A stretch of DNA of 61,792 nucleotides, filler included, from Sphacelaria rigidula (Eukaryota), in NCBI GenBank assembly GCA_964200075.2. It is 7 parts of 7 records of this genome, joined end to end, with 100 filler letters (N's around TTAATTAATTAA, not from the genome) between each part and the next. Parts side by side here need not be neighbours in the genome. Positions count along the whole stretch, not along the records: positions 8,845 to 17,587 come from CAXNAA020010218.1; 6 more parts are not named here. One strand, written 5' to 3'. Under the pieces are notes generated by a model. That model saw only the letters and a program-made list of their open reading frames with translations, was not told where the DNA came from and searched no databases. Below, piece after piece: positions 3,304 to 50,753 of this stretch (within the stretch, counting starts at the first letter, position 1; each line of letters begins with the position of its first letter). Position numbers and translations under genes: made by a program.

Positions 3304-4487
3304 TCTGTCAAGTGTCCATTTTTCTGCGCGCTTCCGCCGAAGTGATGGTTGCACTCCGTCTCTTCTCTTGACATCCTTTCATGTTTTGAAAGTCTGTAAA
3401 CGGCGAGACTTCTGATTCGGGGGGAGGGGAGGCGAGAGTTTCAGAAGGGTTACCAGACACACGGTATCGTAGCGGTTGTTGGCACCGACATCACCGTTTG
3501 CTGTCACCAACTACAGTGCATAGTAGTACACAGGCCATTACTCGATGGATAATGACCCTTGTCCCTTAGCCTAACACTCGCACATGGCGCCAAACGGCCA
3601 AACCACCGATTCATGGTAATGAAACAATGAGCGTGGATCCTTTCAGTCCGCACACCCTGGAGTCGTGCCCTTCTTGTACGTGCCCTGTTGTGCCGAAGCT
3701 TCATCAACGAACGGGTTCAGCATCCACAACATCCGCCACGGAGCATATGTCCTCCTTGTGGAAAGACAGAGCACAAAGTCACCAACGAAATCTGCATGAA
3801 TCCAAAGTCCCGTTCTCTAAGGGCCTTTGTATCGGGAAAACACCCGTGTCAGGCTGGAATTGCTGCGAACGTGTTCACTTTCACCTGATTACAGTTGGCG
3901 TAGGACAGGTCCCCCGCGTGCAAAACAACCGCGATCGGAGTTTTGTGCGCCAAGACGGATGACAGAGTCTCCCTGCGTGAAAAGGGCAGGGGTTACCCGA
4001 ACGGCAGACCATCACAAAACAGCAAACCCAACAAACGGACGAAACGATGAACGTGTCTTCGGGTCTCTGGTCAACCGACCACACCGTATTGGGGATGTCT
4101 ATCTTCGCCACGTACACGGCCCGACCGGTTGAGTTCGAATTCGTCGCGACTGCATGCATGACCACCTCGCCGGGAAGCAAGGTCAAGAAACCACTCCGAT
4201 GTCGCCGGCGAGTTAGTTCCATGAGCAAAACTTGAACGTCAACGACATATTATTTCTGGCTGGAGAGATTTTTCGTGTATAGACGTCGGGTACATATCTA
4301 TTTCTGTCACCACGCCTGTACTCGTAGAAGATCAATTATCAATGTTAATGTGACGCAACCAATCCGCCAATTAATATCGCTGGCTGACAAATGCTCATAC
4401 GGAGTATTTCTATCCCACCCCCGAGTACCGACGTTCCCGTCTGTCGCCCGTTGTATGAGGGTGTGCGCGGCGAGTCTACCTACTCAC

Positions 4488-4716
4488 ATGGAATCATTGG
4501 TCTGCCCGAGGTCACCCAAGACCCCAATGGTGACGGCTTGATCGAGCCCGACCATTGCAGGAGTCTGGAAGTCGCGAACGGCGCTGAGGCCGAGGTCGAC
4601 ATCGCCGCAGGTGTAGAAGTACGTGGTGGACGGGTCTAGGTCGGTCATCGTAGCCGTGTGCAGTATGCCGCTGTGGTAAGGATCCGCGCCGATGTTGACG
4701 TGGTGCGTCGTGTAGT
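4488..4716 (-). CDS. Purple acid phosphatase, internal exon (FN3-like N-domain end plus first metallophosphoesterase motif)
   Basis: cag/GTGAGT-bounded exon encoding YHSGILHTATMTDLDPSTTYFYTCGD...FQTPA...IGVLGDLGQTNDS, typical of PAPs; other exons not identified. Confidence 0.85.
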
Positions 4717-5204
4717 CTGTTTTGTTGGTGCGGGCACGCATGAGTTTAAAGTTTGCAGCGAACACGCGAGAGGTTGTGGTCGCGTGAGCTCTTTGCTTCG
4801 TGAGCAAGCAGGTAGGAATGGTGAGCTCTGCCTGCATTCACGCATTTCATCAGAGATATGTGCTCGCTCGCCATCGCTCGAGTTGGGGGGCACCTGAAGC
4901 GTGACACACGATGATGCTGTGGTAGCGCGCGGTGTGCAAACTCAAAATGTACACACTACATATATTAACGGCCGTAATCTTGCGTATCACATTCCATGTG
5001 TAAGCCTGACGTAGTTTAATTGTCCTCTCCGGAATTCGCCTCAAAGGAATAGCTACCGTATGCACGTTAGATGTTCCCTTGTTTGTCGTCAGCCGTCAAG
5101 ATCCGGGGCTGGTACAGTACCCTGTGTAGTGATCAACACGGTGCGGCGAACGATGGCCGTTTCGGCACGTTTTCCATAGGAACGATCATTTGTGTATAGC
5201 CGTT

Positions 5205-7244: not shown

Positions 7245-7610
7245 TTGTCTTGTCTTGTGGTCCCATCTATCCTGGACGCCGGTCTACACCTTTCGGTATA
7301 TGTCAGCGCACCAGGCGGGGTCACACAGGAGGAAGGCCAACACAGGAGTTCACAGGATTTTTTTTTTCCAACTGTTTGTTCTTCATTTTTCACCTTCCTT
7401 CTGCGGTGCTTGCTTTTTATTTTTTATCGCGAGAGTGGTTCAGCAGTCCCTTTCCCTCGTCGATCATTAAGTCGAATGTTGGGTACCCACGACATAGTCG
7501 CCCTCCACTGTTGGGCATTGTGTGAGAGAAATCCAAGATTGCTCCGAGAATCAAACCCACGACCCAACTGTCAGGAGGTTTCGAGGTTACCAACTGAGCC
7601 ACCGGGGCGG
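7245..7610 (-). mobile_element. tRNA-derived SINE, family A
   Basis: Head GCCCCGGTGGCTCAGTTGG on the minus strand, conserved body, (GACAA)n/(CAA)n tail. Confidence 0.85.
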
Positions 7611-7789
7611 CCGGTACTCCGGAGTAAATATTAAAATCAAATGTCAAAACTCGCAGATGATTATATTTTAAAAACAACGGATTTTGCCCCACCCCCTCCC
7701 CTCGTCGGGTACTTGTGTCAAAGGTGTTGAACTTGGATTCGGGCTACGAGCCCGTGTTGGAGGCATTGTTAAGTGTCGGCGAGCCAGCA

Positions 7790-8844: not shown

Positions 8845-9081
8845 GTGCGTGGGTCCCCTCTCGAAAGGGGGCGCGGCACAAAAACACAATTACCAAAACG
8901 CAAAAAAACAATGGGCCCGCCCCCCCCCCCCCCCCCCCCCCTCCAGATCAATGGTCTTATGACTATGCACGATCATGAGTACACCCTCCCCATGAGTACA
9001 CCCTCCCTCCCCCCGCCATTTGAGCCCTGCGCTTCTCCCCGTAAGCGCTAAGCTCGCACGCCGGGCAGTCAGATAACCAAC

Positions 9082-9688
9082 CTGATTGAAGTAATCCATG
9101 AAGATCTTCGCCGTGATGAAGGGCTCGTCGAACTTGGAGCAGAGCTCGCTCTGGACGACCGGGTCGCAGAGAATCTCCGCCAATTTGTACACCTTCTCCA
9201 CCAGGTCACGGACTTCGTGCCTACCCTTCTCGTCGAGGACGGCGATGCGGAGCTGTCTGCTGGCAGATACTGTCGAGGCCCACAGCCTCTGGCTGTAGGC
9301 GCCGAGGAGCACCTGTTCATTGAATACGTTTTGTATAGAGAAGTGGCAGCAGTGATGGATGGGTGGACGTTGTTTTTTTTCTTCTACGAGCGGTTTCGCT
9401 GGATGTGTAGACCAGGAACATGTGTGCACGAGCAAGCAACACGCGGATGACAACAAGGAAAGAAACACACACACACAAGACACCAAAACGTGACACGAAA
9501 ATAAATGTCATTCGACACGTCAGTTTCACATGCAAAACATCTACCGGATTTTTTTTTCTATTTCCCCCCATTATAAGTATTGTCGACAGCACCAACACTC
9601 ACACCAACACAAACGCCCGACATTACTTTGCCCATTCTCGATAACAATCCTCAGCAACAACCACAACAGCAGCAGCAGCAGCAGCAGC

Positions 9689-9726
<38 letters not shown>

Positions 9727-10391
9727 GGTACTTACGTGCTTGACGTTCTTCATCTTCTCTCCCGCGGTAGGCACCATAATGCACACGGTAGCCTCATTCG
9801 CCACATTAGAGTCGATCTCTACAAGGTCGTCCATGGCGCAGAGATCCCGTATAGACGGGAAGGAGCGTTGCAGATGTGACGTCCAGACACCGCACGTAAG
9901 GATGACCTCGCCGGCGAAAAACAGCCAGTTCCAAACAGGGCTGAGACGCGAAAAATGGCGCGGCAGGAAGTGGAAACAGGAGACGGTGGGAATTGACGAA
10001 ACAAATTGAGGCATCTGGGTGATTGGCGACAAAATCTACACCAAAGAGGAGGAGGAGATTAGGTGGTTGCGGTTGGTGGTGGCCACTGTGCAGGAGAAAT
10101 GGCGGGGGGTGGAGTTCACCACCGAGGTGATTCGACCATTTCTGTAGGGCACACACGAGGATTTTGCATTTCGTCGTCATGTAATGTAATTAATTCGTCA
10201 CGCAAAAAAAATGTCAATACAACACATCACATTTCAGCAAAATAAGGAACGGAAGCTCAAGACCTTACGCCCTACACAGAAATAGTCAACGTCATAATGA
10301 TAATAATAATGATAATAATAATGATAAATGATAATAATGATAAGAATGATAATAATGATAATAATGATAATAATGATAATAAATAATAATC

Positions 10392-10436
<45 letters not shown>

Positions 10437-12811
10437 TCCAAAGAAAGCGCATAGGAAACATAAAAAGCAGAGGACTCGAAAAAGACAAGACAAGACACCA
10501 AAAGCAGAAAAATAATAATGACAATAGAGAGAGAGAGATTTGAACGAATGAGAGAGGATGAGTCTTCATTTCTTCATTTTTCTTCTCCTTGTGGAACCCA
10601 CCTCACTGGATCGTCGGGCATGGAACGTACGGCACGCCACCACAGATACGCGGCCCCCGAAATAACGTTGAGTATCGCACTGATCTTGATCCACACATGA
10701 GTAGGGTGCCGTCCTATCTTCGCCGGATCCGGCGACTTTCCGTTGGCGAACCGCTTGGTGCTCTTTGCGCTGAACCCTGCCCTGGCGGCCCCTTGCCTTC
10801 GGGTGGGCGCTGCGGCCATTTCAGGCGCGTCCTTTGTGGGGATCGAGCTGCTCATGTACAACGACAGTTAAACCACACAACACAGAAAACGGTAGAAGTT
10901 TGAAATAAAAAAAATTGACTTGATTCATTACATTTAATAACAGAAATCATGGATCCACCCGTGGTCGCAGGCAGCATGAACGTAACAAAACAAAAAGGAA
11001 ACACTCTTGTCGAAAAAAAGAAAGGAAAAAAGGAAAAACAAAAAAAAAGAAAAAAGACAAAAAAATATACATATATGTATATAGAACAAACACCAAGTGT
11101 ACAAAAATCTTGAAAAATAATCATTTGGCTGCGTCGAACTGATGAACGAACCAAATCTTGTGGTGAGATGTGAGTAAGGTGGGACATACCTGAAGCAGCA
11201 CATGCGTGCGGCGAAGGAGAACACGATGAGGGGGTACACCCAATAGCACACCCATGACAAGAGGCCAGTTAATGTCTCGGCGCAGGTGTACCCGAACTGT
11301 GCCTGTTGTATCCCGGCATTTTTCACCAGTAACAAATACGGTACAAGGAGATCGGCGGAACGCGAGGCCAAACAGAACGCAAGCGAGCGAGAGGTGAAAG
11401 GTAAGTGTATGCGCACAAAAGCAGTGAACATCTGATGGGCACACGCTTTCACGTTTTGCAAAAAAAAAAACACATTTCCTGTTCATTTCTCCGCAAAACG
11501 CACACATCAAAATGAAACACAAAACTTGGTGACAAAACGAACCGATCCGATCCATCCATCGATCTACTCGGAAGTAGTGATGACATTTCCAGGTATTCAA
11601 AGTACACACAAAAAAAAACTTGAGTTTAAATATTTACACTTCACAAAACATGTCAAAAAGTGTTACAAAAGAAGGCAAAATCAAAGCTACGACCTGATGT
11701 TCTCCGTCATCAAGACTTGCGCCGTACAATAATATCCGGACTGTGTTGTTGAAGAATGGTTCATACACAAACATGAAAGCAATCATGCAAAATAACAGAG
11801 CCAAGGTGCAATACACACACAAAAACACACAAAAAAAAACAGAGAAGAGGTTAGAAAAAAAAACGAGAGAAAAAAGGGGGAAAAAAACACTCACATGGAA
11901 GATGGCGAAGAATTTCTCCGTCACGGTACGCTCCTCGCCATCATCGCCGATGTCGCAGCAGTCACAAATGTCGAAAATCGTGCTGCCATCGGAGTCGGAT
12001 AGCACGTCCTGTTTGTATCGAGTGTATGCGGATTGAAGAATAAATCATTATCCAGCACCGCACCCGCAAAAAAAAAACAGTAGGAAGGAACAAATGAGAC
12101 ATGTTGGAGGGAGAAAGATACGCCGCAACATTCGAGATTTCAGTCGTTATTACAGATCACGTGTGTTTCATTCAGGGTTACTCTTTGAACACTCGCTTGG
12201 GTTCGGCGCGCTTGGTTTTTGGGTTTGGAACAGACAGGGTGGGCAAATATTAAAATAAATAAATAAACGTATTGTAAGGTCACACTTGGTGTGGGAACCA
12301 GGGGAAGGAATGGATATGAGCAACATGTAACACACAGGCCGGTAGTCATTCGTGAGCGCCTTCTGCTGAGATATACACTGTAGACAAACACAAATGCACG
12401 TATATGCTACAGTAGTTGCAATGTTAGTGGGAAGACAAGAGAAAAATGACGAGACCTATATACCACACAACGGGAGATATAAAAGAAAAAAAGACGGCAG
12501 GAATATCTACATGTATATGACCCAATTCTTGAAAAACAGGTCAACAACGAAGCGAAGGAGAAGTGAAAATGTACCTTAATGCCGATAACCCCCATCTTGA
12601 ACAGTCCCGCGCAGCACAAAAACACGACGAACGCTGAAATCCCGAGACATATCGAAGCGAAGACGGATTTCCTGCATCGTGCGAACAAAAAAAGGAGGGG
12701 GGGGGGGGGAATCGTCACGTCAGAAATAACATCTGCAACGCGTAAAATGTTAAACGTAGCTACCAAGCGGCTCTGATGCCAAGTCCAGGGCGGAATGCTT
12801 ATTCAGTCACG

Positions 12812-12842
<31 letters not shown>

Positions 12843-15800
12843 GGTAGCAACATCCACATAAAACAACCGAAAACAAACGCAAAACACACACCCGCATCGC
12901 CGTCCTAGGAAAGCAACACCCTTCCACCCCCCCCTCCCCCCTCTCCTCCCCTCCATACACAGGAGAGGAAACGAAAACAAGAAGAAAAAAAACTCACCCT
13001 TCCATCTCCTCCATGTCATAATAAGGAACATTGGGCTCTTCCCCACCGGCCTCCATGTCCGACACGGTAGCTGAGCTCTTGTGCTGCCGATGAGACGTGA
13101 AACGCGAGGACCGTTTCGACCGGTCGTGGCTGCGCTGACTGCCAAGGGCCATGTTACCCCCCAGTTCCTCGTGGCTCTCTGCGTGGTGCCGACTCACGAA
13201 CGCGCTGCCCTGGCTGGGAGCCCGAGGGGCGGTTAAGGTCGGCGATCCAGGCTTGAGCCTCATCATGGACCCATTTGAGCGCTGAGCGCGTTGCTCGTCG
13301 CTGTGTGGAGGACGAGAGGGGGGAGAAAAAAAAGCGCCGGGGTGGGGGGGGAAAGGGGTTGGGAGATGTTACATTATAGGAGCGACTAGACTTGTAGTCG
13401 AAACGTAAAATAGCGGATACACTTCAATCCCTTCGCCGCCGACCCCCCTAAGATAAACCCAGCACTTCTGCAACTGGATCACTTGGAAATATGGTGCGAA
13501 CAGCGGTGCTTTGACCCCCCAGAGATGGACCAAAAATAGTGATGTACTGTCTGTAGGTGGGCTACTGGAAATATTTCGTAAAATAACTGGTTTGCTTGAA
13601 ACAATTACGTCTTCGACATTTGAGGAGCACGAGATACGCGACATAATTGTCGTTTGCCGTTCATGTTATGTCCATTACATAACCGGGGTACTGACGGGTT
13701 GGTTGGATGAAGATGTTTCAAAAGAATGAAATGAGAAGACAACACTAATTGGGGAAGAAGGGAGAAAAACAAATGCGTAATACAACAAGCACTGGTACAC
13801 GAAATAACAAGAGAGTAGGGCGGCGGAAAAAATGAGAAGGGAAAAGGTATCACGGCAAGGGTAAAAAAAAAAACTCACCGCCTCTTTTTGTTGGACATGA
13901 CCGATTTGGTGAGCGTAGCTTCCATCACTTCCAGCTCCGACCTCGTATCACGTGCTCCGGTCCGACTCAAATACCGGTGCTCGAACCCGGTCATCACGGA
14001 TCGGGTATCGTCATCGTCACCCACGTATGGATCTTGAAAGCGGACCGAGCTGAACGAAGCCTTGGATCTGTGCGAACCGGTCCGGCGGAGGGCAGAAGGA
14101 GCCCGTGAATGACCCGCGACACTCCCCTGGTAATCGGATGCGTCATACGAGTATCCGCCGCGGTCGATGTACCCGTCTTCGTCTTCAACGATGCTCACGA
14201 GACTGTCACCCTTCCTGTGGAAACTGTCGCCAAGAAGGAAATGTAAGCACGGGGAAACACACACATAACAACACACAGCAAAAGGTATCTCAGTCATTCA
14301 AGCAAAGTGCTGCTATAATACAACATGGTGTTGGTGACCGTAATTCGACTCCTCTCAGTGACTTCAAGTAAATGCCGCTGCTACCATATCGTGATGGGTG
14401 ATGGTGTGATGACGTGCCCTTCCGGAGCAGTTGTTTTGTAATGTATTACATTAGCTTTCTCAAGTACACGATAACTTTACCATGCATCCATGTATCTATC
14501 GGGATCACGGTACGCAAGGGACAGGAAATCCCCCCCCGAAAAAAGCAACCAACAAAAACCGAGACTCACAGGGCGCGACCTCCCGACCCTGACACGGCCG
14601 CCACTAGTCCCGGAGGACCCTCAGGCATGCTGTGCTGGCTCGAGACATCCCAATCATGTGAATCTCCACGAAGGTGCGAATTTTGAGCGGAAAAGATGGC
14701 AGGCTCGGGGCCATCTTCTTCACTATCTTCGAAACTGTCCGAGTTCATGAGAGCTCGGCTGGTCTTGAGTACAAGTAGACGTTTTTGGGCGTAGTCCATG
14801 CTATCTAGCTCCGCGGGATCGATGTTGCTGTCTTTGAAAAGGTCCTGAGGCGCCATTACGTAGGGAGGGGGGGGAGGGTTACGAGAGGGAGGAGGGGGTT
14901 ATACGTGTTAACCCTTGTTCGGTAAAGGGGGTTCGGCTTGAAAAATGATCTTGTGTACAAAAATTTTCATGCGCGGCTTGAGGAAATCATCTCAAAAACC
15001 ACCTTGTACCACAGCAACGGACAACAGCGCGGCAAATACCCCCCCTCCCCCCCTCATTTCCTCCCACCCCCACCTGCAGCGCGTCAGCATCAAGAGCCGA
15101 GAGGTTCTGGTTCTTAGACTTAAAATCGGCCGAGTTCTCCGGGGAACCCGAGACAAGGGACGGTCGTCCACTCGCCCCGACATCATCGTCAAGGTCATCC
15201 TCCACTGGCTGTCCCTTGGCCTGCGCGGCCAGCCTCGAGACGTATTGGTTGGTTAGCTGTTCACGCCGAGTAGCCCACGTCTTCGCCCCTGAGTCTGGAG
15301 CGATGGCCCTCTCGTCCACGACACCCCAAACCATGGCCGGAATGAGATAGCGAGCGGCGAGGAGGCCGGCGATGATACCTGGGAAGAGAGGGGGGAGAAC
15401 AGAGGAACAAACATCAACACATGGGTGAGGGAGGCTACTGATCTATTTGATCATCTCGCATATGAAATTGACCCGCGACGGAGCGTGGACGTCCACGCTG
15501 GATTAAGTCAAGCACCCAACGGGTATGAAACGCAACCCATCAATCACAAGTTTTACCATGATGGGCATGTCCACCATGTAACCGAGGCTGGCTGCTACCT
15601 CGGAGATCGGTCGATGTCCAACGATCAACCCATCGGCTTCTCGATCACAAGTCCAGCTCCGTCAATGCGCCCTATAATCGGCCCGTTTTTTGTTGCTGTT
15701 GGAACCCCATCTCTCTTCGAAACATCTCACCTAGAACGGCTGGAATGGGAATCAACTGGGCGTCATACGCGGCGCCCACAGGAAGCATGTAGAGGTAGCT

Positions 15801-17332
15801 CTCCATGCCTTCACGGAGGGAAGCACCGAGGCCCAGATAGAACATTTGGCTTCGCTCGGGACCGGCGCCCTCGGTGTCTTTACTGATTTCCAATCTCCGC
15901 TGCAAGTTTTTTCGGGTGATTCGTTGTATGGATTGCGGGAATTGATGGGGGGGGGGGGGGGGGGGGGGTGCAGGCATTGTCAGCTTGAGTACTGTAATCA
16001 GGGGTGCAAAGGCCATAGTGTAACCACGGCTGGATCCCTGCGGGGTCAATAAAGGTGCGAAAATCATATCGATCAAAGCGGGTGGGAGCTTCTTTTGGGG
16101 GGGGGGGGAAGGCTTCTGCTTACAGACACCTGCATGCTTTGGATCCACGCACATGCCGTACAAGGGTTATGATTTGTGCTAAGAGGCCGCGGTCGTTCAA
16201 GATCCCGCTTGAATGTTTTGTCTCGTAACAATTATACTAATACTGTTCTCTTGATCAATAAAATCGGACGCTGGAATTGTTCCGAGACAATAACGTGGCT
16301 ATTTTTTTTCACAGTAATTCATTTATCATACTGTACTCATTCTTTCTGTGAGCATTGTTGCACCTCTTAGAAGAATACTCCACCAGCAATACGACGGTAT
16401 GCACAGAATCCGTGACGAATCTCCTCACCGTGAAGTAACTCATGCTCCTCGTGACGCCGCTGCCTTGCTGCATAACGGAGATCGCCATGTGAGTGAACAG
16501 GATGGCTGCGAGGATCTGGAAAACTCCCACAAAAACATCTTCTGTGTCGCCGTCGAGGGCGTAGAACTTGAGCAGCGCGAATCCGAACACGGTCAAACCT
16601 CCTGTTCGACAGGTGAACAAGCCACCCCCCCGCCCCCAACGGAGAAGCAAAAAGCAAAAACGGTTGAGAAGGTAGTTCGGAACAAAAAACGAACGCTTAC
16701 TGCTCCAGTTTTTTCGCGAAAGCACTGTCATACTCCACGAAGGGGGCTCGTATCGACAATCCCCAGGAGCCATGGCCATAAACTCCATCTCGCCCAACTC
16801 GGGAGTAGCTACGCAGCCCATTTTGTTCTTATCCACCATATCGCGGTTGTACTACACTATTATCCGATGGGGGAAAAAACCACCGGAGGTCGACCTGCGC
16901 GGTAGGGCAACCCATGGGTTCTCTGCCAGCCACTATCGGCGTACGATTATGCCCTTCTACAACGTATGGAATGGGGAAAACACACAGGAGCCTCAGCCAT
17001 CTGTTGCTCCTGTGGAAAGGTTCAGACAAATGCTCGGCCGCTAGCGCAGGGCTGGCTGGCTGTGAACTCGTTCAAAAGCGAATGTTTCGACACCTTATTT
17101 TGCCTCGCCCCCCCCCCCCAAAAAAAAACATTAATCGAAATTCGGGAATCCCTGACAGGTGACGACTGCTCTGCCGCCAGCTGAACGAGCCCATGCAGCA
17201 AGTTTGCCAGTAGATTTATCTGAACTCACCGGCTAACACGGTCAAGACCAGCCCAGAGGCGGTGCCCAGGCGCAGGCTTTGGAATGACAACGGTCGCATT
17301 ACCGTCAGCGTTCCTTGGATCGTGTTGACGCC
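9082..17332 (-). CDS. FTR1-like iron permease domain fused to a cellulose synthase-like GT2 domain (partial at both ends). Exons: 17332-17230, 16601-16429, 15899-15731, 15378-15074, 14844-14570, 14214-13879, 13300-12998, 12671-12575, 12008-11895, 11302-11190, 10847-10602, 9940-9736, 9312-9082
   Basis: All 13 exons have cag acceptors and GT donors and join in phase (2670 nt, 890 codons, no stop). FTR1-like: EDVFVGVFQILAAILFTHMAI, ASLREGMESYLY, IPAVLGIIAG, FLCCAGLFKMGV, IFDICDCCD...FFAIFHAQFGYTCAETLTGLLSWVCYW. CesA/BcsA-like: AYLWWRAVRS, WLFFAGE, VCIMVPTAGE, LRIAVLDEKGR. Confidence 0.8.
9651..9726 (+). repeat. Intronic (CAG)n(CAA)n microsatellite
   Basis: Trinucleotide run directly after the donor of exon 9940-9736. 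Confidence 0.95.
10293..10436 (+). repeat. Intronic (AAT/GAT)n microsatellite
   Basis: About 140 bp of imperfect AAT repeat. Confidence 0.95.
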
Positions 17333-17756
17333 CTGGATGTATTCATTTTTCACGATCGAACACGCGATAAGACGCAACAATACATGGGCAAATGAAGAGA
17401 GGCAAGAGGGCGACCACTCATGAATGAACATGTGCATCATCCCTCAAGGGCCCGGGCTGAAAGGTGGTTGAGCGTCAGTTACCCAGGCTTTTTCAGGAGG
17501 GGGGAGGGGGGGGGGGGGGGGGGGGCAGAAACGGTGTAGTTGGGCCCCCCGCGGTGGCTGCTGTTGGCACGGAACCCCTTGTTGAAANNNNNNNNNNNNN
17601 NNNNNNNNNNNNNNNNNNNNNNNNNNNNNNNTTAATTAATTAANNNNNNNNNNNNNNNNNNNNNNNNNNNNNNNNNNNNNNNNNNNNGCAATCAGGCCGA
17701 AGAAATCGTGAATTTGGTGATTTTGAGTCGTGATGATTTGTCCTGACCGTGGTTTA

Positions 17757-17916
17757 TTTCCCTCGTCTACCATAAGGTCGAATTTTGTCTACCCACGACA
17801 TAGTCGCTCTTCACTGTTGGGCATGGTGTCAGAAAACCCCCAGATAGCTTCGAGATTTGAACTCACGACCCAACCGTCAGAAGGTTCCGAGGTTACCAAC
17901 TGAGCCACCGGGGCGA
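17757..17916 (-). mobile_element. SINE family A, 5' fragment
   Basis: caaccgtcagaaggttccgaggttaccaactgagccaccggggcg, shared with the other copies. Confidence 0.8.
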
Positions 17917-18480
17917 CCAGGTTTGATTTGGGGGGGGGATGTGGTTGTCGCACATTTAACTGATTCTCGAGAGACCGAAGCAGCCGTGGTAAAAAATAAC
18001 AAGACAGCTGCAGCAGCCATTGTCGTAATCAACAAGATAGCCGATGTCATTATGGTCATTATCCACGAGGTGGACAAATGCACCCGAGGTGAAACGAAGC
18101 GGGATCACTTCACTTTGTGATGTGAAGTAATGTGTTCGTGTGTGTGCTTTTTCCTCCTTCTGCGTGCTTCATATTTATTTCCTCAGCGTGGTGTGGAAAA
18201 ATTGTCGGTGGATGTTTGTCGTTTTGGTGGTATCAAAACGCCCCTGTTCTCTTTGTTGCTCTTGTCTGAGAAAACGTGAACCATGCCGGAAAACCCTTGT
18301 TCCAACATAACTACGGGGGGCTGCAAACAATTGTTCTTTCATTTCGTTTCGTTTCTTTTTTTCATTTCAGTAGTTTCCACTCGAAGCCCCACTTGTCGAC
18401 GCTTGAGCGAACGTTTCCAATCACTTTTCATGTGTATATATTCATGTATATTTACTGCTAAAATATTCTCTGTTTTTCAG

Positions 18481-39700: not shown

Positions 39701-42700
39701 TAGCAACGTCAGTTGCAGGTTTGCTGTGGAACGTGTTATAATAATGGTATATTTCATGTAAGCGAGGTCGTTATTGGGACATGATGCGGGCATTTGTGAT
39801 TCATAAGATCAGCTCGATTACGAACCATTTTTTTTCTGCAGGGAGGGGGTCGGTGTCCATATTCCCGATATATAGTCCCCAAAGTGGCCCCCATTGACCC
39901 CCGTAACTGTACTAGTACGGCAGCAGCGTGCACCTCTATGTGCTCTTGTACTTATGACGACACCTCGAAAAAGGCCATTTTCATGCGCAAAAGTCCGGGC
40001 TGAGGCCGGATGTTATGGCACGTGGATTTTTGGCCCACAAATTGTTCAGTTTTGGGACGTTTGAGCCACCTTTTGACCCCCAAACAAGGAAAACCGCCAC
40101 CACACGTCTCGGACACTTTGCATCACCCCCACAGAGAGGAGCCTAGTCTGCTTTTCAGATCCGCTTGGCTCGGAGGTTTCGAGAGTGACCGCTGAACAAA
40201 AAATCGTGCGCAAAAATCTGTGCTTGCCGACCCCCGCCAGTTTGGGGAGCGGTTTTTCCTGTTTGGGGGTCAAAAAAAAGGTGGGTCAAACGTCCCAAAA
40301 GTGAAGAATTTGTGGGCCAAAAATCTGGGTGCCATAACTTCCGGCCTCAGCCCATAATTTTCCCACGCGGAAGCGCCAAGTAGAAAAGTAACCACACGTC
40401 CAGGACCATCGCAAATTTTATGGCATGATGAAATACATTACGGCAAGGCCCCAATTCGTGGTTACAATTTGGCGTTTTTTAGTTTTTTATTTCAAAGTTA
40501 GGAGTGGAGATCGTTACGGCTGGTGTTGCGCGTTAACGAACATCGAGGCGCACTGTGGTAAAAATGTTTTGCGGTGAATCAGTATGGCCGTACGAAGACG
40601 TGCTGGTCGCCCCGGTGGCTCATTCGGTAACCTCGAAACCCTCTGACGGTTGGTTTGTGGGTTCAAATCTAGGAGCGATCTTGGATTTTTCTCACACCAT
40701 GCCCAACAGAAGTAGTGGAGAGCGACTATTAATATGTCGTGGGTACACGAAATTCGAGTTAATGGTCGACGAGGGAAAGGGAGTGCTGGACCCCTCTCGC
40801 TATGAAAAAAAGAGGTGAGCACCGCACAAAGAAGGTAGGGTAATAAAAACAAAAGAAAGGGAAGAAAACTCCCGTGTTGACCCTCCTTCTGTGTGACCCC
40901 GGCTGGTGCGCCCACATACACCGAAAGGTGTAGATCGGCGTCCAGAGTAGATGGGACGACACCACACGAAGACACTAACATGGAGTTTCATGCAGCTTAA
41001 ATGCAACAGGGCGTTCTTCGCGAAAGTCGCGCTGGACGTAGTAGCCGAACGGGAACGAGTCGGTTGCAGATTCTGATGCCCCACATTGTTCGCCGTAGAG
41101 CTGAATTTTGCGGAATAAGGTTCCGAGAAAGAACCCTGATAAAATTTCGTTGTAGGTACTAGACTACCACACACTGGACAACAGATGACATTGTCAACAA
41201 ATGTACTGCGTACAGTATGGGATCCATTGTCTATTGCATCTATTGCAATAGACCGTAGATCCCATACTGTACGCAGTATATATTTTTTTGACAATGTCAT
41301 CTACTATCCAGGGTGTGTAGACTACATGGAATAATACTATCGCGAAAGTTGGATAGGTCGTAGATTTTGCCGTTTTGCGTTCGCCGACGGACAGTTGATA
41401 TTTGATTCTCCCTTGACTGTACACGAATCGCGTGGGAACCGACTGCTGCACTTCCTCTACACAACGTCGCCCAAGCCGATGCGCACGAGCGCCGTTCGAA
41501 CGGGCGTCTACGACCCATCAGATGTGGCGACGGGGCGGAAGCGACGCAAAGGGTCAACAAGGCCCACGGCTATGAGGGTGGAATGGGGGCCGATTTTGGG
41601 CACTATATTTCGGGAAAGTGGGCATCGACACCTGTCTACAGATGAAACGCAGCCTAGATGAGCCAATCAGCATCAATCACAAGCACACGCGTCACCTCAA
41701 AATAACGACCTGGCCCATATGAAATATACCACGTAAACATTAAATTTTTTATAACGAGCCTGTGACTGACGTTACTGTACATCTGCACACAGGGTCATAA
41801 CAACAGGAGGACAGGAGCTGCTGCTCGTGTTGTTGTTGTGCCCCTCTTGTTGCAGTGTGTTGTTTTGCCAATTTTCCACCGCGCGTTTCTCAGCAACAAA
41901 GCAGAGGGTTGGACTGCGGTTTCTCGCGGACGCTTGCCACACACCCAAACTAGGGAACTCAGCAAACAACTTCCTTCACGCGTGACACACACGTCGCATC
42001 AAACCGGAATGTACTAATACTTTTGTTTATATTCCAGTTTTCGCGGCTTTTTGGGTCCCCTATGGCGAATCGAGCAAATCCCTTGCTTGACCCCTAGCTT
42101 TTGCGTGTGTGCGGGTGGTTGTGAAGTGTGAAGTGCCACAGGCCGGCTTCTTCCTGTGCCGAGGAAAACGCGATGAAAGTGCTACGGCTGTCGCATACTA
42201 CACCAAGTTGATTACGGACGAAGCGTGTGTTCTAGTCGGAACAGCTCGGAACAGATGATGATGTGCTTATTTTTCTTCCGCGTTTTTTTTTTTTCTTGCA
42301 TGGATTTTTTTGGTCTTTATGGCCCTTATTCACCCCATAACAGCAGTATACTCTAAATCAGAACAGTTTTCGTTTTTTTTGTTTTTCACTTGACGGAAGG
42401 AGGAAATCCAACCCAACACTCACCCCGCAAGTGATCGCAGGCGATCGCTAGCGAGTTCGCGTGCCGAATACCCGGAGGTTGGGCTAGACCACCTTGCGGC
42501 AGTCATGTGGGGAAGGCGCCCTGCTCTTAAGGGCTTCGGTCCTAGAGAACAGTTCGTTCATACCCCCCCCCCCTCCCCCCTCTATTCGACGGCGCTCCGT
42601 CTCGAAAGGGATGCGTGGTCAATGGTGAAACGACTGGGCTGATGGTGTGTAATTTTGTTGTTGCTAAGTCACCAAAAGGCCTGGATGGTATGACAAACCG

Positions 42701-48559: not shown

Positions 48560-48920
48560 TGTGTGTGTGTTATCCCATCTATTCTGAACGCCAGTTTACA
48601 CCGTTTGGTGTACGTGGGTGCATCAGCCGGGGTCATACAGGAGGAAGGCCAACACAGGAGTTATTATTTTTCTTTCGTTTAAGTACTCCGCCTCCCTCCT
48701 GTGGTGCTTGTCTTATTTTGTATCGCGAGAGGTGTTCAGCGGTCCCTTTCTCTCGTCCACCGTGAAGTCGAGTTTCGTATACCCACGACATGGTCACTCT
48801 CCACTGTTGGGCATGGTGTGAGAAACAATCCCACATCGTGTGACTTAACCGAGCTCCGAACCCATGACCCGATTGTCAGCAGGTTTCGAGGTTACAGTAC
48901 CAACTGAGCCACCGGGGCGA
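48560..48920 (-). mobile_element. SINE family A
   Basis: Same head and body as the other copies, (CA)n tail. Confidence 0.85.
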
Positions 48921-50753
48921 TCAGCGCCTACTGACCACAAATGGTGTTTCCATGTACTCGTACATATTTTCTTTTAAAACCATAAACCTGCCATGGTCGC
49001 TGGGGATGTTCGGCGGTGATGGTCGATATCCTTTGCACTACAGATTAAACTGTCTGCAATCCTGCGTTTTGGGTGATTCTTTGCGCGTAATGCGGGCCGC
49101 ATGCAATCTCATCGCTGTAAAAGTCCATGACGAATACGTGTACAGCCTTCCTGGCATATGAAGCGGAGAGCAACCAGAAAGCTGCCCATTGTCGAGTAAA
49201 GCGACACGCGATGATGGCACACAGAAGACCGTGTGTTTCAGAACGACAAACTGACGCCTGGTTGCCGATTGTTCGTAGTTGTCTGTTTTTGTTGTGAGAA
49301 TGCGAGACGGGTAGGCGTCTCCTATGAATGTTTTTTTTTTATGCTCATGAGCGTGTTTTTTTGTGTGCATTCAGGTTGTTCGTGATGTAGGCAAAAATGT
49401 TTCAGAAGTTTTGGCGCATGTTGAGAAACGGTTGAGAAACGCCTAGGGATATCGCGGATAAGAGCCGTCCACGTCCCCTGTTGCGGGATTTGTGGTATAT
49501 GATGAGAGAAAAGACCAAAAGACAAGCCAAACAATGTACGAAATATGTGTCTGTCTGACGACTAGCGATTGTGTTCACACCTGACGCATACACCGCCTTA
49601 GTCACCAGAGTCACCCGCGGCGCAGAGATTTCTTGTACTCGGTGTGACTTTGTACGGGGAAATAGAAAAGGTTGCCAGCTTTAGAGTCGTCGGGCAACGT
49701 TAATCTTCAGTGGTGAGTGAGGATATGAATCATTGGTTGATCCTGATCCGCTACTATTTCTATCGAATCCGGCGTACTGTAGATAGATAGGCTGGGAATC
49801 CACAAGAGATGACGATTTTTTTAAGTCGCTTTGTTTTCCCTTTTTTTTTTGGCCTCACATTGAAACACTCGTCACCCACAGGCTTGAAATATTACTGTTG
49901 TTTCAAGCAGTGAAGAGGACAGCGCTTCCTCTCACCCTTACCGATGCGGTAGGATTTATTTCCGGATTTAGACTCCGTTTCAGAGGATCAATTTTCTCTT
50001 TTTTTGCTGATTTAAATTTGCCGTCTACTGCGGGTAAGATTTTCCCGGAGTTTAAGAAAAGAAGGTTGCCAATCTGGGAGAGAATTGAGCCACTAACCTT
50101 ACCCATGCTCGAAGGACCTCGTGAATCAAGACCGGTACACGTCGTCTGGACCACGAAGAAGGATAAATATGAAATGAAAATTTTCACCGCTCCAAAACAA
50201 GGACGGGATGAGTTGATTTTTTGTCTACAGGGTCTGGTCGTCGTCTAGCACATTTCGTGACTAGTGTCTTGAAGTGCTGGATCAGTTGGCCGCGTTATTC
50301 TTTTTGTACATGTTGATTGCACTGAAGCAAAAAACATTCTACTGAGTTGTGTAAAAAATTGAGTGATTCCCAGCTTGTGATGTTTCGGTGGAGGGGGAGG
50401 GAGGAAGATTCTAGCAAATCTTGGGTGATCCGACACTGAAGAATAATTTTATGCACTCAAGGGGCGCGCATCATTCGCTGGAAACCACACCTCCCTCCCC
50501 CAAATGCCAATCACCTGAAGGGAACCAGGCTTTTCCCCCCGACTTGATGCAAATCCTCGGTTGTACGTAATGTTTGAATTGGGCAGGTGTGAGCACCGGT
50601 GGGCACCCCCCATCAGCACTTGCTGCTCAATCCACGCAGGATTCGATGTGACTGGACCGACGGAGTCTATATCGAGGAGACAGTCGTCGAACTCCCATGA
50701 CACTGCTGTTCCTCCTGCACTTATGTTTGTGGTGTATACGTAATGTTATGCAT

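Follow-up and report, generated by a model that had tools for sequence, protein, structure and literature searches.

A permease-like membrane module spliced in frame to a putative cellulose-synthase-superfamily glycosyltransferase in the brown alga Sphacelaria rigidula

Can an iron permease and a polysaccharide synthase be parts of one brown-algal protein? The question is raised by a stretch of DNA from Sphacelaria rigidula (NCBI GenBank assembly GCA_964200075.2), 61,792 nucleotides long with its spacers and hereafter called the window. The gene studied lies wholly within the second of the seven blocks that make up the window, at positions 8845-17587 (CAXNAA020010218.1). An initial annotation had read this gene as an FTR1-type iron permease domain running without a stop into a BcsA/CesA-type enzyme of glycosyltransferase family 2 (GT2), and had proposed a wall-polysaccharide synthase that carries its own metal transport or sensing module. 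Here we report that one spliced messenger RNA joins the permease-derived module in frame to a GT2 of the cellulose-synthase superfamily, and we weigh what the module may do.

A single transcript across the junction

The gene model was obtained by scripted splicing on the minus strand between 17332 and 9082 (Table 1). Its 13 exons join in phase into 2679 nucleotides, or 893 codons uninterrupted by a stop, a trivial difference from the 890 counted initially; all 12 introns begin with GT and end with AG, and the end of exon 11 was placed at 10602 because the reading frame is then kept. Every peptide quoted in the initial annotation was recovered, in the same order, on the minus strand in its listed exon; exon 16601-16429 encodes EDVFVGVFQILAAILFTHMAI and exon 12671-12575 encodes FLCCAGLFKMGV. 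The true first exon or exons of the gene lie outside the window, and the coding sequence runs on past 9082, again beyond its bounds.

Eight public sequencing runs contain the stretch, and four of these carry about one fifth of its words, roughly the exonic share. The RNA type of runs X1-X4 is a guess, none of them being on record as RNA. The comparison was made on block 2 with the RNA-type runs X1, X2 and X3, which come from one study, and the DNA run X5. One contig in each of X1, X2 and X3 (4801, 7286 and 7276 nucleotides, respectively) carries all 12 splice junctions, eleven of them read directly as joints and one, 9312/9736, deduced from adjacent contig pieces; in the DNA run X5, none of the 12 was present. 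The junction 11190/10847, at which the initial annotation had suggested that transcripts be sought, is thus found in all three RNA-type runs and not in the single DNA run. On their 3' side the contigs extend beyond 9082 with MDALDKFVF.., which are the next residues or exon in the homologues P0003 and P0004, and on their 5' side they extend beyond GVN with ..AAVVTVGSARQ, a sequence that lies outside the window.

The architecture claimed for Sphacelaria rigidula was found again in other brown algae. Seven homologous gene models are at least 680 amino acids long: P0003 (eukprot, 1504 amino acids), P0004 (Laminaria digitata, 1371), P0005 (Undaria, 1092), P0006 (Ectocarpus sp., 873), P0002 (Hapterophycus, 778), P0008 (Discosporangium, 741) and P0007 (Choristocarpus, 682). 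The first three align with the spliced model end to end at 43-67% identity by segment, P0006 and P0002 start within the N-terminal part and then cross the junction, and the junction is therefore spanned in five of the seven. Identity to the three end-to-end homologues is 45-61% over transmembrane helices (TM) 2-5 (the 45% belongs to P0004, whose model lacks the start of this region), 54-57% over TM6-7, 43-52% over the insert between TM5 and TM6, and 79-84% over the start of the synthase (its first 178 residues); exon 13 alone matches brown-algal proteins at 66-79%. The whole insert measures 367 residues in the window protein and about 370-400 in the protein generally. Full-length homologues have approximately 1,400-1,500 residues, with one extra helix preceding the seven helices of the family. 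Word-based searches with the N-terminal 260 residues returned 34 single-exon brown-algal fragments and the same three long proteins, and no stand-alone or otherwise fused relatives.

Descent and motif loss of the membrane module

On the 13 separate exons, Pfam gave noise only (DUF202, HRG and similar, E>=0.02), and the PF03239 cut-off of 25.3 bits was not reached, the one score being 13.3 bits on P0004 among four homologues. With TIGR00145, P0003 (E=2.9e-4) and P0004 (E=5.7e-4) reached 20.6 and 19.6 bits, where the cut-off is 303.8, and the EfeU model NF041756 matched the TM6-7 half of P0005 at E=1.5e-4, under its curated cut-off. A search of the ESM Atlas gave no usable match to residues 1-260 of P0003. 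A PDB sequence search found no solved relative of the N-terminal module at E<=1 and likewise none of EfeU; according to the available part of a 2025 review (PMC11817551), no structure of the FTR1 family has been solved, and a PDB fold search is for that reason unable to test for the FTR1 fold.

A profile was built from alignment A3 (A1 and A2, in which exon fragments were misplaced, were left unused) and compared with 1.84 billion representative proteins. It found 118 matches at E<=1e-3, many of them brown-algal exon fragments. Sixty-three matches chosen by eye as non-fragments (at least 187 amino acids) were scanned with Pfam, and PF03239 was present in 60 of them at 78-282 bits, the best of these agreeing with the profile at E=2.8e-15 over profile positions 49-225, while a glycosyltransferase domain was found in none of the 63. 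Other FTR1 fusions do occur among the profile matches: P0134 (787 amino acids) combines Fea1 with FTR1 (108 bits) and P0093 (757 amino acids) combines FTR1 with the SBF bile-acid-symporter family (120 bits). In these two the partner domain serves iron assimilation or transport, and both proteins stand well above the PF03239 cut-off, unlike the algal module.

The spliced protein of the window aligns with the FTR1-family protein P0066 in two collinear blocks, residues 22-154 with 86-217 and residues 565-671 with 234-343. For comparison by hhalign, 30 proteobacterial FTR1 domains were taken from a phylum-wide family search, a search by EfeU locus having given only Enterobacteriaceae-type copies at 87-100% identity, too alike to make a profile; the module matched these domains at P=2.3e-4 to 3e-5, against P=0.14-0.45 for reversed-sequence controls. 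In the multiple alignment the shared features are these: helix 1 has IP.FF.F.R, helix 3 ..F.G and helix 4 REG; IPIPAV precedes helix 5; helix 6 has AAGL, loop 6 (D/N)IC.CC and helix 7 FGY..W..YW. Set beside yeast Ftr1p and E. coli EfeU, the algal protein has the seven membrane helices in the same order, with common motifs in helices 1, 3, 4, 6 and 7 and in loop 6, and it differs by its extra N-terminal helix, the long insert between helices 5 and 6 and the C-terminal synthase. Judged on the profile matches, the collinear alignment and the hhalign comparison with its controls, the N-terminal module is a true relative of the FTR1/EfeU family by common descent, as initially claimed.

The end of the permease could be placed from its tail. 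The motif CFSxIPxK straddles the junction of exons 10 and 11 and recurs in the FTR1-family proteins P0064 (350 amino acids, CFKNIPVK) and P0066 (374 amino acids, CFSRIPLK), both of which end soon after this eukaryote-type tail. The junction thus falls within permease-derived sequence, and the true fusion point lies a few residues downstream of it, inside exon 11.

The available part of PMC11817551 describes the FTR1 family as having seven helices, an outer N-terminus and an inner C-terminus, and RExLE motifs in helices 1 and 4 whose glutamates are absolutely required for iron uptake by yeast Ftr1; further marks are an acidic residue in helix 3 (E89 in yeast) and DxxE in extracellular loop 6. 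The initial annotation had seen the second of these motifs in the window, as REGME, and had expected the first upstream. REGME stands. The helix 1 motif, however, reads RASVV in 20 brown-algal sequences and RAAVV in the other two, with both glutamates replaced in all 22, and the Sphacelaria rigidula transcript reads ..AAVV.. at this place, in an exon outside the window. SSIREG, at the end of the homologues' first exon, was considered as motif 1 and rejected, the alignment with canonical FTR1 putting that motif at FRASVV. In helix 4 the last glutamate is present in 7 of 20 sequences, that of the window included, and its position is taken by proline, alanine, methionine, isoleucine, valine or glutamine in the other 13. 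The canonical E.(I/L)FEG of helix 3 has become ED.F(T/V)G, in which the first glutamate is kept in 11 of 12 matches and the FEG glutamate in none (T, V, R or M instead); this count omits a spurious match, VEAGFNG in a loop of P0006. Loop 6 of the window protein has DICD, where four other sequences have DICG or NICG. By comparison, 43 of 52 FTR1-family matches of at least 250 amino acids have at least two R[ED]xxE motifs, with three degenerate Phaeothamnion proteins counted among the 52. In contrast to yeast Ftr1p and EfeU, the algal module is thus without both glutamates of motif 1 and keeps motif 2 only in part.

The three scanned matches without a Pfam family at E<=0.01 (P0087, P0088 and P0116) are partial and come from Phaeothamnion confervicola, which is related to the brown algae within the PX clade. 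They are degenerate at the same places as the brown-algal proteins (VRLGV or LRLAI in helix 1, RDGLR or RDLWT in helix 4), and P0087 resembles those proteins further in its long insert before helices 6-7 and in a tail followed by a P.RR linker. In a tree of N-terminal halves, the three Phaeothamnion proteins and the brown-algal modules form one clade (Shimodaira-Hasegawa-like approximate likelihood-ratio test, SH-aLRT, 98). This clade has a long branch (1.6 changes per column) and falls within the non-bacterial FTR1 radiation, although this was a quick tree, without bootstrap and from half-length rows, and may be affected by long-branch attraction. Besides its degenerate proteins, Phaeothamnion also has a canonical FTR1 (P0076). 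This distribution suggests that the degenerate lineage predates the brown algae, and perhaps the fusion itself does as well.

The synthase part and the role of the module

The C-terminal part of the window protein reads as the start of a cellulose-synthase-superfamily GT2, a putative polysaccharide synthase, and the in-frame continuation claimed initially agrees with both the family scores and the alignment with BcsA. PF03552 (cut-off 24.7) scores 59.2 bits in P0003, 65.1 in P0004 and 44.1 in P0006; the window's 178 synthase residues alone gave no Pfam match in the single-exon scan. Solved relatives in the PDB are cellulose synthases and CslF6 only. In the alignment with BcsA, exons 11-13 supply two helices that precede the GT-A domain, then VCIMVPTAGE (VDIFVPTYNED in BcsA) and LDEKGR (LDDGGR in BcsA). 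Two helices before the GT-A domain are found in the superfamily as well, and these two motifs, together with KAGNMN, QTPQRF, IED (for TED) and QVFRW of the homologues, align with E. coli BcsA or barley CslF6. Unlike E. coli BcsA, the algal protein has a brown-alga-specific insert of about 140 residues after LDEKGR and an FTR1-derived N-terminus, and lacks the PilZ domain.

The catalytic exons are absent from the window because block 2 ends inside the gene: tblastn of the homologues found no downstream exons anywhere in the window, matching residues 53-995 of P0003 and leaving its last 509 residues unmatched. The DxD, TED and QxxRW motifs that had been expected downstream were accordingly read in six homologues (P0002-P0004 and P0006-P0008). 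Two of the three are as expected, with IEDTHTSLE (TED) and QVFRW (QxxRW) in all six. The third is altered, NDARH standing in all six for the FDCDH of BcsA with arginine for the second aspartate, a change that could alter the metal dependence of the synthase. The first aspartate motif is LDEKG in the window and in the six homologues against LDDGG in BcsA, the first aspartate being kept and the second replaced by glutamate.

A full-text literature search found no published description of an FTR1-cellulose synthase architecture. The fused proteins are present in public databases as unnamed products, and their precomputed Pfam annotation is PF03552 alone, so that standard annotation misses the permease half. 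A red-algal CESA reportedly carries a CBM48, going by the title of a study cited in PMC8307928; it and the brown-algal protein would both have a non-catalytic module ahead of the synthase core in one polypeptide. Compared with the lineage-specific N-terminal modules on other eukaryotic cellulose synthases, the algal module would be a transporter-derived multi-pass membrane domain and not a soluble binding or zinc-finger domain. The locus represents a conserved, unannotated domain architecture composed of known kinds of part, with a degenerate permease half. Brown-algal CESA and CSL groups have been described (PMC8307928, available part), and no candidate among the brown-algal GT2 members has been validated biochemically according to the available part of PMC11468063; the main texts of these two wall papers, as far as available, do not mention the architecture.

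Block 2 holds the middle of one expressed gene encoding a four-part protein. Its first part is a membrane module descended from a eukaryotic Ftr1/EfeU-type permease, with the seven family helices in order; the second, the insert between helices 5 and 6, rich in serine, aspartate and arginine, would face the cytosol as a regulatory region; the third is a short linker after the permease's own C-terminal tail; and the fourth is a processive-type GT2 whose GT-A domain is preceded by two helices and followed by others. Under the Ftr1 topology, the insert (loop 5), tail and linker would be cytosolic and loop 6 outside, and the fusion would be topologically coherent because the permease tail and the synthase N-terminus would both be cytosolic. 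We infer that the module no longer carries iron by the mechanism of the family, since none of the sequences examined retains the glutamate pair of helix 1, and the pair of helix 4 survives only in part. Because the permease's charged pathway is largely gone and yet the module is conserved, it is probably an FTR1-derived pseudo-permease, an accessory membrane domain serving the positioning, assembly or regulation of the synthase, with roles that might include anchoring, assembly or trafficking of the synthase complex. One member of the brown-algal GT2 family would then consist of two parts, the front one a transporter that can still be recognised but is disabled. Such a protein would clearly exemplify the recruitment of a transporter fold as an enzyme accessory domain, and would offer a concrete handle on the placing, assembly or regulation of brown-algal synthases in the membrane.

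Two other readings would undo the fusion or the kinship. If the locus held separate neighbours, a permease-like gene with its end near 11190 and a synthase gene beginning at an ATG at 10855, wrongly joined by in-silico splicing or by read-through, one would point to that in-frame ATG (10855-10853), which lies in the intron 8 nucleotides upstream of the acceptor 10847, to contigs that are unable to show transcript starts, and to the models P0007 and P0008, which begin downstream of the junction. A fusion point within exon 11, however, argues against ATG 10855 as the synthase's own start, SIPTK after the junction belonging to the tail in common with P0064 and P0066; the junction is also spliced in the RNA-type runs and spanned by most of the homologous models, and the unspliced frame of exon 10 would extend for 84 codons (to 10937) of low-complexity sequence. 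We consider this reading very improbable. Still less credence, and almost none, can be given to the view that the FTR1 resemblance is a chance product of hydrophobic composition in an unrelated multi-pass domain. It is refuted by the 60 PF03239 proteins among the 63 scanned matches of the module's profile and by the collinearity of both halves, with the specific motifs IP.FF.F.R, REG, IPIPAV, AAGL, (D/N)IC.CC and FGY in common, and the reversed-sequence controls fail, even though single exons lack a Pfam match, PF03239 reaches just 13.3 bits on one of four homologues and the ESM Atlas gave nothing usable. None of the three outcomes that the initial annotation had named as telling against a fusion was seen: separate transcripts, no FTR1 profile similarity, or orthologues consistently encoded as two genes.

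The remaining alternatives concern what the module does. The initial proposal of a synthase carrying its own metal transport or sensing module found no support, both glutamates of motif 1 being lost in all 22 sequences and both of motif 2 retained in only 7 of 20, and a still-active cation permease or sensor, coupling iron or other divalent cation status to polysaccharide synthesis, seems to us unlikely. It could draw on the true FTR1 homology, on the REGME of the window and the second glutamate of that motif kept in 7 of 20 sequences, on the first glutamate of helix 3, at its start, which 11 of 12 genuine matches keep, on the acidic loop 6 (DICDCCDIGDDGEE in the window) and on the 45-61% identity of the module among brown algae. 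It has to contend with RA[S/A]VV in place of motif 1 throughout, the loss of the second motif 2 glutamate in 13 of 20, the T, V, R or M at the helix 3 FEG position in 12 of 12, and a long branch (1.6 changes per column) that fits a change of function; yeast Ftr1, moreover, needs the glutamates of both motifs (PMC11817551, available part). A residual ion-binding or sensing role, or the docking of an extracellular partner via loop 6, is about equally doubtful. Slightly less likely again is a module that has taken on a new function as a gate or sensor within the synthase itself, and that might pass or bind a cation other than ferric iron or might, through its conserved cysteine-rich loop 6, dock an extracellular Fet3-like oxidase or other wall-modifying partner. 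Wall polymer extrusion would in that case be coupled directly to apoplastic metal or redox chemistry, and the arginine in place of the second DxD aspartate would hint at a changed metal dependence of the synthase.

Several points weigh against a pseudo-permease fused to a synthase. The motif loss is compatible with the binding or passage of another ion, and the window copy keeps REGME in helix 4, the glutamate at the start of helix 3 and the acidic DICD of loop 6. The module falls under the curated cut-offs of both Pfam and NCBIfam, and its membrane topology was taken from the FTR1 family and not computed. X1-X3 are guessed to be RNA, come from a single study and were used as assembled contigs, with which an extra internal start at ATG 10855 is compatible; the catalytic half in Sphacelaria rigidula is known from the length of these contigs alone. 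In front of exon 17332, where homologues have only 70 codons, about 3.1 kb are present in the contigs of X2 and X3 and about 0.74 kb in that of X1; the 3.1 kb stretch might represent an extended 5' leader, additional exons or a neighbouring transcript joined on during assembly. Lastly, P0007 (Choristocarpus) and P0008 (Discosporangium), both from early-diverging lineages, are gene models that begin after the junction; they could be incomplete, or some lineages could lack the fusion.

Layout of the window

The window consists of seven blocks of 8740-8744 bases set apart by six spacers with the pattern N44-TTAATTAATTAA-N44 (Table 1). The letters TTAATTAATTAA were read at 17588-17687 only, and the other five spacers were inferred from their matching arrangement of N runs (44 N, 12 bases, 44 N). 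Block ends interrupt genes; the gene studied is not continued in the neighbouring blocks, which are not its flanks or else lie far away.

Table 1. Exons of the gene studied and spacers of the window (positions along the window)
Feature	Start	End	Strand	Description
Exon 1	17230	17332	-	Internal exon; FTR1-type loop 1 and start of TM2 (GVNTIQ..LRLGTASGLVLTVLAG); junction 16601/17230, loose end 17335
Exon 2	16429	16601	-	End of TM2 and TM3 (DGDTEDVFVGVFQILAAILFTHMAI), the E.(I/L)FEG helix of canonical FTR1
Exon 3	15731	15899	-	Cytosolic loop 3 and TM4; second permease motif REGME (ASLREGMES), conserved IPIPAVL
Exon 4	15074	15378	-	TM5 (IIAGLLAARYLIPAMVWG) and start of the long TM5-TM6 insert
Exon 5	14570	14844	-	Part of the insert, with many Ser, Asp and Arg residues (loop 5, inferred to be cytosolic)
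Exon 6	13879	14223	-	Insert (continued)
Exon 7	12998	13300	-	Insert (continued)
Exon 8	12575	12671	-	TM6 (ISAFVVFLCCAGLFKMGV); aligns with the LLFIAAGL helix of FTR1 proteins
Exon 9	11895	12008	-	Loop 6 (extracellular by analogy) with DICDCC, then start of TM7 (FFAIFH)
Exon 10	11190	11302	-	TM7 (AQFGYTCAETLTGLLSWVCYWVYP; AQFGY...LSWVCYW) and start of the FTR1-type C-terminal tail (..RMCCF)
Exon 11	10602	10847	-	Remainder of the FTR1-type tail (S|SIPTK), followed by a linker of about 45 residues and the putative first synthase membrane helix (YLWWRAVRS)
Exon 12	9736	9940	-	Putative second synthase helix (WNWLFFAGE) and first GT-A strand (VCIMVPTAGEK, similar to VDIFVPTYNED of E. coli BcsA)
Exon 13	9082	9312	-	LRIAVLDEKGR (similar to ILDDGGR of BcsA) and start of the brown-alga-specific insert of the GT domain; loose end 9082
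Spacer	8745	8844	.	Closes block 2 on the 3' side of the gene
Spacer	17588	17687	.	Closes block 2 on the 5' side of the gene
Spacer	26430	26529
Spacer	35272	35371
Spacer	44113	44212
Spacer	52953	53052

The introns of the gene carry long microsatellites of the types (ATT/ATC)n, (CAA/CAG)n and (GCT)n, at 10290-10440, 9650-9725 and 12810-12845, and homopolymer C/G runs near 15945-15975 and 16085-16100. The run contigs placed on the window skip or break at several of these intron microsatellites and homopolymers. A dispersed repeat of about 165 bp, with copies 77-86% identical, occurs in several blocks (17757-17922, 7451-7615, 40603-40778, 48747-48924 and 1278-1348); ARAGORN found no transfer RNA in the window, although this repeat looks like one by eye. 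Block 1 holds part of another gene, an open exon on the minus strand at 4487-4837 that matches the purple acid phosphatase N-terminal domain (PF16656, E=6.6e-10).

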